In this document: positions 523 to 8,273 of the stretch, piece after piece
Position numbering within the stretch: position 1 is the first letter of the stretch
How the letters are laid out: each line of letters opens with the position of its first letter
IMG/VR virus record: IMGVR_UViG_2540341016_000013
Length of the DNA: 26,426 nt
Strand: one strand, 5' to 3'
DNA from: a virus
Taxonomy: Duplodnaviria > Heunggongvirae > Uroviricota > Caudoviricetes
Program-made: the position numbers and the translations under genes
Notes under the pieces: model-generated
What the model was told of the DNA's origin: nothing
Database searches by the model: none
The model's input: the letters and a program-made list of their open reading frames with translations, nothing else

Positions 523-545
523 ATCAGTAAGTTGGCAGCATCACC
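523..545. repeat. IS1 terminal inverted repeat (insA-proximal end)
   Basis: Sequence atcagtaagttggcagcatcacc is the reverse complement of the IS1 terminal IR; host sequence starts at 546. Confidence 0.85.
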
Positions 546-1309
546 CAAAGCCCTGACGATCAACATCGACCATTACGGTGGCATTCGGTTTATTGCCTGT
601 CAGATAATAATAATCAACAACCGTCATACCCTGGGTATATTTCCCCTGTGTTTCCACGCCAACCCAGCGCTCAACAGAGGTAAATAACTCCGGTTTCAAC
701 AGCCAGGCGATGGTGCATGGGTCATGCAGTGGTGCGCCGACAAAGCCCCATTTTTCGTCTTTATGATATTCGAGGAAGAAATCCAGCAGTTCGGCAACAA
801 TGGTTGAAACAGGGTTGCCAATCGCGCGGAAACGCTCAGTGTCTTCAACGTGGATTTGTGCTTTGTGAGTAACATCCAGACCGGCCATCACCACCGGGAT
901 CCCTGACTGGAAGACAATTTCTGCCGCTTCCGGGTCAACGTAAATATTAAATTCAGCCGCAGGCGTCCAATTACCCAGCCCCATTGCGCCGCCCATAATC
1001 ACGATACGGGCAATTTTGCTATGCAGTTCCGGATGGCTATTGAGCAGCAAGGCAACGTTAGTTTGCGGTCCGGTAGACACAATCGTGACAGGTTCCGCAC
1101 TTTCGCGCAGCGTTTTCGCCATCAGCTCTACCGCCGTACAGTTTTGCGGTGCGAACGTCGGTTCCGGTAATGCCGGGCCATCCAGACCGCTTTCGCCGTG
1201 CACATTGTCCGCGATAATCAACTCACGCATTAACGGTTTTACCGCACCGCCTGCTACCGGAATATCGGTGCGATTAAGCAAGGTCAGCATACGCAGAACA
1301 TTGCGTAAG
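546..1309 (-). pseudogene. rihA: IU-nucleoside hydrolase family gene fragment (RihA-like), truncated at both ends
   Basis: ORF 541-1290 translates to a ribonucleoside hydrolase with the GPQTN motif. Its C-terminus ends ...DVDRQGFG then a TGA supplied by the IS1 terminus. Upstream of 1309 the frame stays open but lacks the N-terminal DxDPGxDD calcium-binding motif, so the 5' end is also missing. The rihA paralog assignment is from memory. Confidence 0.7.
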
Positions 1310-1353
1310 TGATGCGCCGCGCGATAAATGCACTCTATCTTGTGCGATAAATG
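1310..1353. repeat. Prophage terminal transposase-binding-like repeats (Mu attR R1/R2-like)
   Basis: TGATGCGCCGCGCGATAAATGC followed by ACTCTATCTTGTGCGATAAATG: two adjacent 22-bp units sharing GCGATAAATG, starting with TG exactly where hydrolase homology stops. Resembles the Mu right end as I recall it. Confidence 0.6.
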
Positions 1354-1387
1354 GCATCCACGCGGCGTTTCATTATTTGAAAAAGAA

Positions 1388-1960
1388 TTACATTTCAGGT
1401 TGCGTTATGACAGTCCCAACAGGGTGATAGCGGTAGATCGTTGACAGTCCAATATCATAGATAATTGCCAGCCGCTTTCTGTCATACCCTTTCTGGAGCA
1501 ATCTTGCGATCTGCTCATGCTGCTCCTTCGTCAGTTTCGGGCGACGTCCTCCAACTCTTCCTTGTGCTCGCGCAGCAGCCAGTCCTGCCAGCGTGCGCTC
1601 AACTATCAGTTCACGCTCCATTTCTGCCAGTGCACCCATCATATGAAAAAAGAACCTTCCCATCGGAGTGCTGGTATCGATTGAATCCGTCAGACTGCGA
1701 AAATTGACACCTTTTGCGCGTAGCTCTTCTGTGAGAGCAATGAGGTGTTTCATTCTTCTACCCAACCGATCCAGCTTCCAGACCACCAATGTATCCCCTC
1801 TTTTAAGGCACTTTAAAGCGCGTTTCAGGCCTGGTCGTTCCGACTTGGTTCCGCTCATTTTGTCCTCAAAAATCTGTTCACATCCTGCGCACATTAATGC
1901 ATTGCGTTGCAAATCTATGTTTTGGTCATTTGTTGACACACGTATGTAGCCAATCAGCAT
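1388..1960 (-). CDS. Serine DNA invertase (Gin/Hin/Cin/Pin family)
   Basis: [22 protein letters not shown]...[10 protein letters not shown]...[21 protein letters not shown] is a resolvase/invertase catalytic domain with a C-terminal HTH. Start taken at the internal ATG 1958-1960, which has an AAGGGAG SD; the longer ORF N-terminus looks like out-of-gene read-through. Confidence 0.9.
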
Positions 1961-2014
1961 TAAAAATACTCCCTTTTGAGTGGTTAAAGTACTGAGATAA
2001 TGTGGGGAGGATTT

Positions 2015-2040
2015 GAGAGATAAACGTTGGTTTGGGGGAA
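2015..2040. other. Left recombination crossover site (hix/gix-like) of the invertible segment
   Basis: Reverse complement TTCCCCCAAACC-AA-CGTTTATCTCTC; the shared half TTCCCCCAAACC plus AA core resembles the hix/gix half-site (AAACC-AA-GG). Sits at the outer boundary of the left inverted repeat. Confidence 0.5.
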
Positions 2041-2226
2041 GGCTCTGCATTGCCTGTTGGTGTACCGGTTCCATGGCCCACCGCCACACCGCCAGCAGGC
2101 TGGTTAAAGTGCGACGGGCGCGCCTTTACAAAAGAACAATATCCTGTTCTGGCCAGAGTCTACCCGACCCTCCGTCTTCCCGATTTACGCGGTGAGTTTA
2201 TCCGTGGATGGGACGACGGGCGCAAA
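2027..2226. repeat. Left 200-bp inverted repeat of the invertible tail-fiber segment
   Basis: Identical by eye to the reverse complement of 3445-3644; encodes GEGSALPVGVPVPWPTATPPAGWLKCDGRAFTKEQYPVLARVYPTLRLPDLRGEFIRGWDDGRK in both copies. Confidence 0.85.
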
Positions 2227-2544
2227 GTTGATACAGGACGTAAGTTGCTGTCCGCACAAGGGGCAACGCTGTTAAGAACAGCAATGCTGGATTATTATAA
2301 CCAGGACACTACGGGAACCTCGGGGATAGTCGGCATGGGATTCAACAATGAAGATTCCATTACAGACCTTCGTGAGGGCAGCTTTAAAATGCCGGACGGG
2401 ACAACATTCAGCGATCCTGTCGTGGCAATGTCAGACAATGGTATGCAGGCTACTATTCTGACCTCTATCAGAAGCGGGTATGCGAAGGGTATCACTGTCA
2501 GACCCCGTAGCATTGCACTTAATTACATTGTGAGGGCAGTTTAA
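2032..2544 (+). CDS. Alternative tail-fiber C-terminal cassette (Sv-prime), promoterless in this orientation
   Basis: Frame opens inside the left IR with no genuine start (the listed M is TTG); after the shared IR-encoded region it diverges into a distinct C-terminal domain ending ...IALNYIVRAV; stop overlaps the tfa start (TAATG). Confidence 0.7.
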   Translation: MGEGSALPVGVPVPWPTATPPAGWLKCDGRAFTKEQYPVLARVYPTLRLPDLRGEFIRGWDDGRKVDTGRKLLSAQGATLLRTAMLDYYNQDTTGTSGIVGMGFNNEDSITDLREGSFKMPDGTTFSDPVVAMSDNGMQATILTSIRSGYAKGITVRPRSIALNYIVRAV

Positions 2545-3158
2545 TGAGTAACACTGCAGTTCTGGATGAAAACGGTATCGCCACTGTAGCGGGCGATATC
2601 ACTGTATATCACTATGACGAGGAAACCCGGGAATACACCTCATCCTCTGTGGAGTATCTCGCCCTTGGGGTGGGTACTCCGGCACATTCGTGCGCCGATG
2701 CACCGCCGGAGGCAATTTCGGGTTACGTGGTTTGCCGGACTGCCACGCTGAACGGGTGGGAGCATGTGCCTGATCACCGCGGCGAGACGGTATACAGCAC
2801 GGAGAACGGTAACCCTGTTCTGATTACCCAACCGGGTGATTACCCGGCGGACACCACCACAAAACAGCCAGCCACGCCATGGGATACCTGGAACGGTGAG
2901 GCGTGGGTAACCGATACTGAACGGCAGCGAGCCGCAGAACTGGAGGTTGCCAGACAGCAACGCCAGCAACGGGTGAAACAGGCGATGGCGTCAGTCGATC
3001 TTATCAACCTCAAACTGCGTGCTGGTCGCAGTCTGACACCAGAAGAAACGGCAAAACTGAACGCCGTGCTGGATTATATCGACGAGCTGAACGCACTGGA
3101 TATCAGCACGGCACCTGAAATCAGCTGGCCGGAAGCGCCACTGGCACTTGCCAGTTGA
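2544..3158 (+). CDS. Tail fiber assembly protein (Tfa/U-like chaperone)
   Basis: 204-aa ORF directly coupled to the Sv-prime cassette; N-terminal MSNTAVLDENGIATVAGDITVYHYDEETREYT resembles phage Tfa chaperones. Confidence 0.75.
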   Translation: MSNTAVLDENGIATVAGDITVYHYDEETREYTSSSVEYLALGVGTPAHSCADAPPEAISGYVVCRTATLNGWEHVPDHRGETVYSTENGNPVLITQPGDYPADTTTKQPATPWDTWNGEAWVTDTERQRAAELEVARQQRQQRVKQAMASVDLINLKLRAGRSLTPEETAKLNAVLDYIDELNALDISTAPEISWPEAPLALAS

Positions 3159-3164
3159 ACGGTA

Positions 3165-4456
3165 TCACGCCGCCCTCACGATATAGTTAAACGCGATATT
3201 GCGGGGGCGGGTTATGTTAAAGAATGCTCCGTTTAATTCGGCTTTTGCGCGACTGTTTGTTCCACCCAGAATTACGTACCACAAATAATCGCTACGGTAA
3301 TTCCCCGCAAACACCTTATCGCCGCCATAGTCAATATTATTTCCGTTACTCATGTACGAGATATCAAGCGAAGAATCGTTATCGTCATGACCGCCGACCA
3401 GTGTACCTTTCTGCCATGAAAGCAACTTACGCCCCTCGTCAATCTTGCGCCCGTCGTCCCATCCACGGATAAACTCACCGCGTAAATCGGGAAGACGGAG
3501 GGTCGGGTAGACTCTGGCCAGAACAGGATATTGTTCTTTTGTAAAGGCGCGCCCGTCGCACTTTAACCAGCCTGCTGGCGGTGTGGCGGTGGGCCATGGA
3601 ACCGGTACACCAACAGGCAATGCAGAGCCTTCCCCCAAACCAAGGTAATTGAGGACATCTTTTATACTGCCCTTAGCGATAATAGCGCGACCAATAGCTG
3701 TAAGGGTTGCCAGCGCTGCGCGGTCTGCTCCGGTAAAATAAGGCAACCGATCTGCTGCAGTGGCAAGTCCTGCCAGAGCAGTGAGCGTGGCATCTGCCGG
3801 TTGTTTTCCGTTTGCCAGATCGTATGCAGCCTTGACCGCTTTCGGTGTGGCGGCCAGTATTTCAGACGTGCTGTTGATGGCACTGCTCAGTTGTACGGTG
3901 CCTTTTGCCGTCAGCGAGGCAGCAGGCACTCCCGTTATCTGACTCCACGGGTGAGTGTGGCTGACGGGCGCCTTGCCGGCTGCAAGGTCGTATGCAGCCT
4001 TGACCGCCTTCGGCGTGGCAGCCTCAGTTTCTGATTGACTGTCCGTGGCGCTGCTCAGTTGTACGGTGCCTTTTGCCGTCAGTGAAGCCGCAGGCACTCC
4101 CGTTATCTGACTCCACGGGTGAGTGTGGCTGGCAGGCGCCTTGCCGGCTGCCAGGTCGTATGCAGCCTTGACCGCTTTTGGTGTGGCGGCCAGCGTTTCA
4201 GAGGTGCTGTTGGTGGCACTGCTCAGTTGGGTGAACCCCTTAGCTGTCAGTGTCGCGTCCGGGTGGTTACGGGAACGTACGTGTTCAGCCAGTGACTGTG
4301 CGGCTTCCTCCGTTTTCTTCTTCAGCCATTTCGTCCTGTTTGCCAGTTGCCGGGGGCTCGATTTGATATCCCGTCTGCACCACCCAGAACCGGATCTGAT
4401 GTCTCCAGTTGATAGATATTTTCTTCCCACTTTTCTGTTTCATTCAGGTTTCCCAT
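3165..4456 (-). CDS. Tail fiber protein (P2 gpH / Mu S-like), currently fused to the Sv cassette; apparently frameshifted near the N-terminus
   Basis: ORF 3165-4430 has P2 H-like shaft repeats and a C-terminus ...NIAFNYIVRAA. The only ATG with coupling to the upstream gene is at 4454-4456 (MGNLNETEKWEENIYQLETSDPVLGGADGISNRAP...), which is one frame off and joins the long frame at a 5-nt homopolymer (4352-4356). Confidence 0.8.
3445..3644. repeat. Right 200-bp inverted repeat of the invertible segment
   Basis: Reverse complement matches 2027-2226; lies inside the expressed tail fiber gene. Confidence 0.85.
3631..3656. other. Right recombination crossover site (hix/gix-like)
   Basis: TTCCCCCAAACC-AA-GGTAATTGAGGA; the AAACCAAGGT core matches the hix-type centre as I recall it; at the outer boundary of the right IR. 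Confidence 0.5.
3783..4247. repeat. About 2.8 tandem 168-bp (56-aa) repeats in the tail fiber shaft
   Basis: cgtatgcagccttgaccgc recurs at 3821, 3989 and 4157 (period 168); protein repeats TAKG(F/T)(T/V)QLSSA...AATPKAVKAAYDLAAGKAP(A/V)SHTHPWSQITGVPAASL. Confidence 0.8.
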
Positions 4457-4458
4457 AA

Positions 4459-5037
4459 TCAACTGCTCCCGTGGTTATAACTGCCATCATGGATGGCGGT
4501 ATTGTTATAGCGAATGGCCACAGACTGATACTCCAGGCTGGCCAGATGGCAGCGGGCCGGTGCAAATGCAGCCAGCGTCTGACGCAGCATCGCGGCCTGA
4601 TCGTTAGTAATGGGCTGTTTCAGAATAACGCGATAAACTGCCCAGGCGGCTGCATCTCCATGAACAAACAGTCCGTTATAGCTGCGATTGCCGTCGTAAC
4701 TGAGACGACCTGTGCCTTCAATCAGATCCACTTCACCAAAGCCAAAACGGCGGATAACTTCCCGGATTGACCACGGCGTCCCTTTATACCGGTGCAGTTC
4801 GATGGCTGCTTTTATAAGCATGCGGCGAACATCGTCCGATTCCGCCAGCTCCCAGCCATCGCCAGACAGTGAGAACTGCTCGCCCAGCCATGGCAGCGCG
4901 GAACTGTCGACGATATCGACGAGAAAGACCATCAGTACGCTCAGGTCGATGTTATCCAGCCGTCCTGCCAGTCTTCCCAGCGTCCTGAGACTGATATCAC
5001 CCTCAAGCGGTGGCGGGAGTTGTAATGGCTCAGTCAT
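4459..5037 (-). CDS. Baseplate/tail protein I-like (P2 gpI family)
   Basis: 192 aa, position between the J-like and fiber genes; N-terminal MTEPLQLPPPLEGDISLRTL pattern fits gpI. Confidence 0.75.
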   Translation of the reverse strand: MTEPLQLPPPLEGDISLRTLGRLAGRLDNIDLSVLMVFLVDIVDSSALPWLGEQFSLSGDGWELAESDDVRRMLIKAAIELHRYKGTPWSIREVIRRFGFGEVDLIEGTGRLSYDGNRSYNGLFVHGDAAAWAVYRVILKQPITNDQAAMLRQTLAAFAPARCHLASLEYQSVAIRYNNTAIHDGSYNHGSS

Positions 5038-6525: not shown

Positions 6526-7122
6526 TCAGTGGGAGTGGTGGCTGGAGTTTTCGCCATCAGACAACATACTGCCCGTGGCATGGGCATTCCCTTTAATCTC
6601 GATATTGCCATGGATGGTCGCGGTAACACCTTCACCACCAGAACCCGCCATGCCTCCTTCGTAAATCAGCTTACCCCTGACACGCAGATCTCCGGTAAGT
6701 TCGGTTTCCGGTGCGTCAATCGTGGCTTTCTGTGTTTTCAATACCACATCAGCACCACACTCAATGACAATATGCTCAATGCCGCCCCGGATGGTCAGAG
6801 TGTGCGTCTTCCGGTTGTAGCTGTACTCTGCACCATCAGCAAACCGGGTTCCCCGGATATTTTTGTCACTGAACGGTGGTTTATCGACGTCTGAATACAC
6901 CGCGCCCAGAATAACACCATCCTCGCCGTTGGCATCGAGCAGCACCTCAACCTGCTCCCCCACGTCAGGGAGCCAGTAATCTTTGTTATCCTGGGTATTG
7001 CGCTGCAGCACGTTAAGCCAGTTTGTGCGCAGGTTATCGCATTCAGGCAGACGAACGCGGGCCTGAACCCTGTCGGCATCAACGGCACTGACCGTACCGA
7101 CCTGACGAGTGACACCAGTCAT
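6526..7122 (-). CDS. Baseplate spike protein V-like
   Basis: 198 aa; size and position match gpV/Mu gp45; Gly-rich C-terminal region. Confidence 0.75.
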   Translation of the reverse strand: MTGVTRQVGTVSAVDADRVQARVRLPECDNLRTNWLNVLQRNTQDNKDYWLPDVGEQVEVLLDANGEDGVILGAVYSDVDKPPFSDKNIRGTRFADGAEYSYNRKTHTLTIRGGIEHIVIECGADVVLKTQKATIDAPETELTGDLRVRGKLIYEGGMAGSGGEGVTATIHGNIEIKGNAHATGSMLSDGENSSHHSH

Positions 7123-8273
7123 TTTTTCTTCTCCTTAATCACCGTCGATGTACTGCCATCCGGGTGATAAACCGTGAGTTTCTGAGTTTTTTGTTTTTTC
7201 CCTCTTGTGACTGGCCCCCGTGCCACTTCCAGCTCTGTGGTGTAGCCGCTGTTACGGTCAAACGCATGGCGGGCAGTGGTTATGAGCCATGGCCCGGATA
7301 ACTGCCCAAAACCCACCAGTTCAATTTTGTTGCCTGCTGTCAGTTGAGGTGTTCCCGTCAGCGTCAGGGAGCCGTTCTGCTGGTATTCGTTATGTCTGGC
7401 CAGTGCTGAATCCGCTTTAATCCGGGCACTGTCCGGGTCGCTGACGCGGCTGTTAACTTTAAGTGAGTCAGCGCTGGTAACCTTACCACCTTTGAGCTTT
7501 TTGTCGCTTTCACGGGTACCACCATCAGCTTCGTAGACGATCAGTTTTTTACTGCTGCTTTTCTGGTGTTTTACCTTTGCAGATTTATAGACCCGGTTGA
7601 TGGTGTCACGCAGGGAAAAGCGGGCCACATCCTGCGGTTTTAACTGCCTGACCGGCTCCTGACTGCGCAGTGTGGCCAGATGAGAAAAAATCAGCTGGTC
7701 ACTGACCACTTTCACTGCATAACCATACTCGCTGGCCAGCCGGCGCAGAAAACCCACGTCGGTTTCAGCATACTGGGTCACCCGGTCGATTCTGATGGAC
7801 TCAATGCTGCCCACCAGTTTCAGTCGGTGCTTTCTGGCAATCCGCCCCGCAACAGCTGCCAGCGTGGTGTTCTCAAAACCACGACTGGTTTTAGTCCGCA
7901 GGGCACTGTTAACCGAGGTGGCCACCCCACGGATAGAAACAACGGAAGCGGGCGAACTCACTTCGATCTCGTCTATAGAGAACGTACCGCAGGACAGCAG
8001 CTTCTCGCCCTGATAGCCCATTTTCAGCGTCAGCGTGTCACCCTTGCCCGGATACCACTTATCCAGCCAGCGGCCATCGGTGTCGTCCAGCTCCACCTCA
8101 ATGGTATCGGACTCATTTTTGATGTTATCGCTCCAGGTCACACGGGTGACATAAGGCGCGATATCAGAGGTGATGTTTTTCTGCAGATACCACAGAGTGA
8201 ACACCGGTGTCAGCACATCGCTGACGCCGGTTAACGCTGATGTGACTTGCGCAGTGCTGTTTATCTCAGCCAT
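7119..8273 (-). CDS. Tail protein D-like (late control D / baseplate hub family)
   Basis: 384 aa, located between the X-like and V-like genes. Confidence 0.7.
   Translation of the reverse strand: MAEINSTAQVTSALTGVSDVLTPVFTLWYLQKNITSDIAPYVTRVTWSDNIKNESDTIEVELDDTDGRWLDKWYPGKGDTLTLKMGYQGEKLLSCGTFSIDEIEVSSPASVVSIRGVATSVNSALRTKTSRGFENTTLAAVAGRIARKHRLKLVGSIESIRIDRVTQYAETDVGFLRRLASEYGYAVKVVSDQLIFSHLATLRSQEPVRQLKPQDVARFSLRDTINRVYKSAKVKHQKSSSKKLIVYEADGGTRESDKKLKGGKVTSADSLKVNSRVSDPDSARIKADSALARHNEYQQNGSLTLTGTPQLTAGNKIELVGFGQLSGPWLITTARHAFDRNSGYTTELEVARGPVTRGKKQKTQKLTVYHPDGSTSTVIKEKKK

Follow-up and report, generated by a model that had tools for sequence, protein, structure and literature searches.

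Three DNA inversion systems are the usual points of reference for the exchange of tail fibre ends. The recombinases of Mu G/gin, P1 C/cin and e14 P/pin belong to one family and exchange the 3′ end of a fibre gene in frame, and in each case the invertase gene lies just outside the invertible segment. These segments are symmetric, each tip having a tail fibre assembly gene (tfa) of its own (U/U′ or TfaE/TfaP). Plasmid p15B carries a multiple-inversion region, Min, which was described by Sandmeier, Iida and Arber in 1990–92 and is reported to be 3.5 kb long, with six crossover sites; six cassettes and a single tfa would fit this length. Here we describe a fibre switch in a stretch of 26,426 nucleotides (hereafter the window) from a tailed virus of the class Caudoviricetes, IMG/VR record IMGVR_UViG_2540341016_000013. 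All coordinates are those of this 26-kb window, with strands in brackets. The recombinase is of the same family as those of Mu, P1 and e14, and the fibre 3′ end is exchanged in the same way, but there is one tfa for two tips. Judged from its sequence, the locus belongs, as a minimal example with two cassettes, to the Min-type invertase switches. This family of fibre switches is known since its first description from plasmid p15B, so that the system is not of a new kind.

The features of the locus are listed in Table 1. The invertase gene adjoins an invertible segment of ~1.6 kb. Its product matched PHROG 125 'DNA invertase' with E = 1.4e-94, and 159 of its 190 residues (84%) are identical to those of the pin/min gene product of plasmid pMCR_SCKP-LL83, which served as a proxy for p15B Min. 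The two crossover sites, of 26 bp each, are at the outer ends of the inverted repeat. They are in inverted orientation, and have a common half-site and a 2-bp centre. When the window was searched with the crossover core pattern, two matches were found where none was expected. The core is kept in 18 invertase-adjacent loci, and is present in nine copies in the p15B-type region.

Within the segment, the silent tip cassette B has neither a promoter of its own nor a proper start codon. It is followed directly by tfa, the ATG of which overlaps the cassette B stop codon (TAATG) and is preceded by a GAGG Shine-Dalgarno sequence ~9 nt upstream. No crossover site lies between cassette B and tfa, and the pair therefore always moves jointly. 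Tip A is encoded on the opposite strand, where the fibre gene ends. Its stop codon and that of tfa face each other across 6 nt (3159-3164), and a late transcript towards tip A would cross tfa in antisense. A terminator between the two genes was considered and rejected: only these 6 nt are available for it, and four terminator-like matches, compared with 3.4 expected, are attributable to chance. The part specific to tip A runs from 3168 to 3417 and encodes 83 aa. The preliminary description of this DNA gave the expressed tip as 3165-3444 and 88 aa, but 3418-3444 belongs to the repeat.

A Tfa profile was built from the Tfa protein of the window and run against all six-frame open reading frames (ORFs) of at least 50 aa in the window. 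It recovered this gene only, so that neither a second tfa nor the cryptic copy considered in the preliminary description was found among these ORFs. Two ORFs antisense to tfa (2640-2969 and 2840-3013, both (-)) were unmatched by the profile and showed no likeness to Tfa by eye, although they were not searched singly. With one Caudo_TAP gene in the window, the symmetric layout with a convergent pair of tfa genes is absent. The anatomy and the profile search thus bear out the earlier description of a lone tfa that is coupled to the silent cassette and runs convergently to the expressed tip.

Table 1. Features of the fibre switch and its surroundings (window coordinates)
Feature	Position	Strand	Evidence and remarks
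Serine DNA invertase gene, Gin/Cin/Pin/Min (Din) type, 190 aa	1388-1960	-	Pfam Resolvase E = 5.8e-51, and HTH_7
Invertase-proximal crossover site	2015-2040		GAGAGATAAACG, central TT (2027-2028), then inner half-site GGTTTGGGGGAA
Left inverted-repeat arm, encoding N-terminal part of the cassette B collar domain	2024-2252		repeat search: 229 nt, 96% complementary
Silent tip cassette B, collar domain and variable B tip	2032-2544	+	Pfam Collar E = 9.8e-16; PHROG 523 'tail collar fiber protein'
tfa, tail fibre assembly gene, 204 aa	2544-3158	+	Pfam Caudo_TAP E = 3.5e-28; PHROG 105 E = 3.2e-88
Tip A variable part and stop codon	3165-3417	-	ORF and sequence; continues into fibre gene
S-like tail fibre gene: constant part, shaft repeats, collar, tip A	3165-4456	-	Pfam Phage_fiber_2 (three matches) and Collar
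Right inverted-repeat arm, collar-coding part of the expressed fibre gene	3418-3646		repeat search: 229 nt, 96% complementary
Fibre-gene-proximal crossover site	3630-3655		TTCCCCCAAACC, central AA (3642-3643), then GGTAATTGAGGA
Shaft, three tandem 168-nt repeats	3805-4308	-	Phage_fiber_2
IS1 fragment, with InsA-like ORF at 215-490	1 to ~540	-	recognised by eye only
Nucleoside-hydrolase gene, first ~48 codons missing	541-1290	-	IU_nuc_hydro

When the segment was inverted in silico, cassette B became fused to the constant part of the fibre with the reading frame preserved. The region 1300-4600 was compared by megablast with 5426 complete Escherichia coli genomes, and matches were found in 851 of them, 164 being near full length. 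The module is thus common; ST131-type strains are among its carriers, and it is also present in P1-like phage-plasmids. The junctions between shaft repeat and tip were then counted in the same genomes. The junction to tip A, which is the state of the window, was present at a coverage of at least 80% in 103 genomes, and the junction to tip B, as in the segment flipped in silico, in 327, with identities of up to 99.9%. The flipped state was also found in phage 503046 and in three E. coli prophage loci (L095-L097). Both orientations occur in nature, and the switch operates.

The close relatives of the locus also have a single tfa. An ST131-type prophage (L002) contains three collar cassettes, with three repeats, and one tfa. 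P1-like phage-plasmids with R, gp16, DarA and LydB as neighbours (L084-L086) and the prophages L095-L097 have two to three cassettes and one tfa, and a further E. coli prophage (L087) has six cassettes and one tfa. In pMCR_SCKP-LL83 (MF510496; L098), which is p15B-min-like, nine cassettes and nine cores AAACGTTGGTTTRGGGGAA are accompanied by one tfa, annotated tfaE. Eight cassettes precede an IS26 cut in another P1-like plasmid (L091), with no tfa before the cut. The window has exactly two crossover sites, compared with three in L002, six in L087 and at least eight in L091, and it is therefore a minimal version of the arrangement. Segments of the symmetric type, with two tfa genes, were also seen in our survey (L073, L074 and the e14-like L012 and L014).

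The closest match is to p15B Min, as represented by pMCR_SCKP-LL83. The invertible region of this plasmid is 99% identical to p15B min over 92% coverage, and the p15B region is attributed to Sandmeier et al. 1991 (Zhou et al., PMC5786510). As in the window, a Din-family invertase gene adjoins collar-type 3′ cassettes that start with the core, a single tfa lies within the DNA that inverts, and a cassette faces this tfa convergently. The Tfa proteins are 57% identical. The two differ in that the proxy has nine cassettes, compared with two sites and two cassettes in the window; in that it is located on a P1-like plasmid, compared with a Mu-like chromosomal prophage; and in the sequence type of the tfa-convergent cassette. 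A three-repeat prophage 'shufflon' of enteropathogenic E. coli E2348/69 undergoes inversions of ~2.2 and ~1.8 kb between three homologous inverted repeats, giving three alternative C-termini, and PCR confirmed every one of its isomers (Goldberg et al. 2014, PMC4272514). Compared by size and not by sequence, these inversions fit three cassettes and one tfa, as in L002; the paper is silent on chaperone genes.

A single tfa is therefore the rule of the Min-type switch family, and neither a defect nor a loss in this prophage. The preliminary description took one chaperone for two tips as a departure from the norm, and this view does not hold: a family with several tips and one chaperone has in essence already been described, since p15B Min has, in the proxy, nine cassettes and one tfaE. 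The same comparison bears on the proposal that this prophage has recently lost, by deletion, a second tfa that was cognate to tip A. Mu, P1 and e14 do have one tfa for each tip, and two tfa matches each were found in the e14-like loci L012 and L014. In L084-L086, however, tfa and a convergent C-type cassette are separated by 6 nt, as are tfa and tip A in the window, and this 6-nt tfa/tip junction is identical in Mu-like prophages and P1-like plasmids. The one-tfa design moreover reaches as far as the p15B type, and the Tfa profile detected no tfa remnant among the ORFs of the window. Because the junction is common to different kinds of element, we regard a recent deletion as very unlikely, and the earlier suggestion that the chaperone was lost here is correspondingly improbable.

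The same invertase protein (WP_000904922.1) was also encountered in two other settings. In a P1-like plasmid (NZ_CP117014.1; L090) its gene lies beside a conventional two-tfa segment. In an IncI conjugative plasmid (NZ_OP290546.1; L099) it lies within the pil operon and adjoins a gene for 'prepilin, shufflon protein A'. This second arrangement, which recalls a fusion between PilV and a tail-collar protein described in PMC9881135, could reflect recombination or a misassembly.

Both tips matched the PHROG family 'tail collar fiber protein' over their full length. Tip A also matched the tip of T4 gp37 (2XGF) with E = 1.7e-15, in the collar and, separately, at the extreme C-terminus (NIAFNYIVR). 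In gp37 the chain returns to the collar. A chain return of this type would explain why the last ~16 residues are kept in all cassettes while the ~80-100 residues between differ. By their sequences, then, the tip cassettes resemble the collar and C-terminal strand of gp37. They lack its long needle domain and have a variable insert of only ~80-100 aa, and in T4 there is no DNA inversion. The Caudo_TAP domain of the window Tfa covers residues 79-199 and is the conserved C-terminal domain of the λ Tfa, Mu U and P2 G proteins, which places the protein in the same family as the Tfa of the λ Stf/Tfa pair.

The relationship between tips and Tfa was surveyed in 80 loci, one genome per species, using profiles for the tip, Tfa and the invertase. 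In 60 non-redundant tip-Tfa pairs, the median identity was 29% in the variable part of the tip and 81% in its last 16 aa; for the first 80 aa of Tfa (the N-domain) it was 45%. Identity in the variable tip part did not covary with identity in the Tfa N-domain over these 60 pairs (Spearman rho 0.035, p = 0.14). Full-length Tfa homologues lay directly after a collar tip in 60 cases out of 61. Where the match was to the C-terminal domain of Tfa only, 29 of 35 genes were not after a collar tip. Precomputed Pfam labels agree with this division, Caudo_TAP_N being present on collar-associated Tfa proteins only. On this comparison of sequences, the Tfa N-domain goes with collar-type tips as a class and not with their variable inserts. 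North et al. in 2019 are said to have identified the N-domain as the part of Tfa that binds the fibre C-terminus. A generic Tfa is also favoured by a C-type tip in Enterobacter with a Tfa after it that is 50% identical to the window Tfa, by the likeness of the tip to gp37 at both the collar and the extreme C-terminus, and by the ability of λ Tfa to replace T4 gp38. One Tfa may thus recognise the common collar and C-terminal part, and could serve every cassette.

Tfa was not always present. No Tfa homologue was found within 7 kb in 15 of the 80 surveyed loci, among which were a P2-like operon where the sheath gene comes directly after the fibre gene, and short orphan fibres of Yersinia, Xenorhabdus and Photorhabdus. 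Tips of the A and C types, recognised by the motif G[HF]DDND, were without a Tfa in cis in all seven cases in the genome survey, and in a Sodalis locus a C-type tip lies beside an unrelated tip/Tfa pair. A general statement that A- and C-type tips never have a cis Tfa was nevertheless refuted by a C-type tip with Tfa in Enterobacter. The ratio of nonsynonymous to synonymous substitution rates (dN/dS) was ~0.09 for cassette A compared with a 79%-identical relative, and 0.07-0.2 for the C types; the closest A alleles differ by too few substitutions for a useful ratio. By these ratios, the A- and C-type cassette sequences have been under strong long-term purifying selection.

Several other arrangements of collar tips were noted in the surveyed loci. 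Intact stand-alone collar-fibre genes of ~260-290 aa (L037 823-1620, L072 6599-7459 and L035 ~6704-7489) occur in Xenorhabdus and Yersinia beside host genes (rpoD, ubiF/miaB), with no Tfa, baseplate or invertase gene nearby. In Photorhabdus akhurstii (L075 10794-11876), a collar tip and a Tfa homologue appear to be contained in one frame of 361 aa, which may be a tip-chaperone fusion or the result of a missed stop codon. A locus in Symbiopectobacterium (L094 4001-5854) has a collar cassette convergent with a fibre gene of the gp37_trimer type. A 54-aa tfa remnant stands alone between the convergent genes, the resolvase gene is degenerate, and the locus looks like a decaying switch.

The joint explanation that we consider best, and on balance probable, is that the locus is a Min-type switch with one generic Tfa, in which the A-state fibre is assembled without co-transcribed Tfa. 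The Din-family invertase would recombine the 26-bp sites within the fibre gene, at the start of the collar-coding region, and every inversion would join the constant shaft in frame to another 3′ cassette. Each cassette is predicted to supply the same gp37-like collar, a different receptor-binding insert of ~80-100 aa and a common C-terminal strand, RPRNIAFNYIVRA; homology to gp37 suggests that this strand returns into the collar. The cassette directly upstream of tfa (B) would always be co-transcribed with tfa, and is probably translationally coupled to it. The tfa-convergent cassette (A in the window, C in ST131-type and P1-like elements) would never be co-transcribed with tfa. As the Tfa N-domain follows the class of collar tips, Tfa most likely acts as a generic chaperone on every cassette. 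Fibre assembly in the A orientation would proceed without co-transcribed Tfa, which supposes that collar tips can fold with little Tfa or none; this is the weakest step. The surveyed loci that lack a Tfa, the seven A- and C-type tips with none in cis and the purifying selection on cassettes of these types count in its favour.

A number of observations weigh against this explanation. Most surveyed collar tips have a tfa 6-36 nt downstream, and in an Enterobacter P2-like prophage a genuine C-type tip has directly after it a Tfa with 50% identity to the window Tfa. These two observations leave it unproven that tip A is independent of Tfa. The lack of covariation indicates that Tfa is not tuned to the insert, and is no proof that it acts on every cassette; that one Tfa serves all tips is what the class-wide pattern suggests. 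Purifying selection was measured over lineages in which the cassette may also sit on the tfa side. Finally, the link to p15B is made through a secondary paper (PMC5786510) and the proxy sequence of pMCR_SCKP-LL83. Chaperone-free folding, a defective state and independent transcription of tfa, the options put forward in the preliminary description, are all live. We rank assembly without co-transcribed Tfa as the most likely, followed by an orientation-independent promoter and then by an unproductive 'off' state.

A promoter fixed in the spacer that separates the invertase gene from the first crossover site, or one within cassette B, could read rightwards into B and tfa whenever the late operon faces tip A. 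Tfa would then be made in every isomer, and every isomer would be productive. The only candidate, an extended -10-like sequence, TGAGATAAT, was noticed by eye at 1992-2000 (+), outside the invertible DNA, and tfa has a Shine-Dalgarno sequence of its own. This motif is nearly palindromic, however, and may be part of the promoter of the invertase gene on the other strand. The spacer between invertase gene and site is not conserved among the 18 loci, and a late transcript in the A state would also cross tfa in antisense, which argues against an independent tfa promoter. The preliminary description proposed a promoter search upstream of tfa; a consensus scan of 1300-4600 found no sigma-70-type promoter, compared with 2.4 expected by chance. 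Such a promoter is a possibility to which we give clearly less weight than to assembly without co-transcribed Tfa.

It is also conceivable, if rather doubtful, that phages in the A orientation are switched 'off' or poorly productive, the fibre misfolding without Tfa and the particles being fibreless or weakly infectious. Tfa-type chaperones are required for the fibres of Mu, P2 and T4, and the prevalence of cis Tfa genes among collar tips points in the same direction. The family could tolerate such a state if only some isomers must work, and the B junction is three times commoner than the A junction among genomes. Junction counts in prophages, on the other hand, are not selected for virion function and are confounded by multi-cassette variants. 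Two further points speak against an 'off' state: all examined members of the family have an intact ORF in the tfa-convergent cassette, and cassettes of the A and C types show strong long-term purifying selection.

Other prophages or P1-like plasmids that share the cell might instead provide Tfa in trans, their proteins being ~60% identical to that of the window. Homologues of ~57-62% identity were found by tblastn in HK97, P2-like and other coliphages, and cross-substitution of chaperones is known: λ Tfa can replace gp38 of T4. This supply would be unreliable, because resident prophages are repressed while another phage is induced, and it would be unavailable after infection of a new host. We consider it quite improbable. 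Assembly of the A-state fibre without co-transcribed Tfa remains the explanation that we prefer.

The fibre gene of the window requires a further comment. Its true start is the ATG at 4456, but the frame from this codon reaches a stop after 44 codons, as a run of C residues at 4352-4356 contains five C where the relatives L001-L003 have six (a -1 frameshift). The fibre ORFs of L001-L003 are intact, with 426-474 aa, and restoring the sixth C in the window gives an ORF of 430 aa. The frameshift may be genuine and inactivate the gene, or it may stem from a sequencing error in the homopolymer. The preliminary description called the tip of this fibre 'currently expressed'. The orientation does face tip A, as that wording implies, but the gene that starts at the ATG is frameshifted in the window. 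The copy number of the shaft repeat differs among relatives, the fibre of L003 being longer, with 474 aa.

At the left end of the window, the IS1 fragment adjoins the truncated nucleoside-hydrolase gene, and the end of the prophage starts at ~1310, where this gene breaks off. In other genomes the same prophage end adjoins varied host genes (aroA, paaJ, lom, uxuA, otsA and others). Such variety fits a Mu-like transposable prophage, and we infer that the element is one, with its transposase gene outside the window.

A single tfa might also add a combinatorial layer to the larger switches. Cassettes that are not the flanking ones would land on either side of tfa, with or without co-transcribed Tfa. 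The Tfa of Mu is reported to stay on the fibre tip. If Tfa stays on the tip, or alters the folding yield, each cassette could have two functional states. We offer this idea as speculation and think it improbable. If it is true, the tfa-convergent tips (A and C types) would form a class in which chaperone-free folding has evolved.

In half of the isomers tfa is antisense, and how Tfa is then supplied or dispensed with is a narrow question that can be tested by standard phage genetics. If one Tfa serves many collar tips, or if some tips need none, engineering of host range in phages and tailocins would be simpler: the cassette would be exchanged and the chaperone retained. Modules of this kind determine which hosts are open to temperate phages that carry genes from one pathogen to another.

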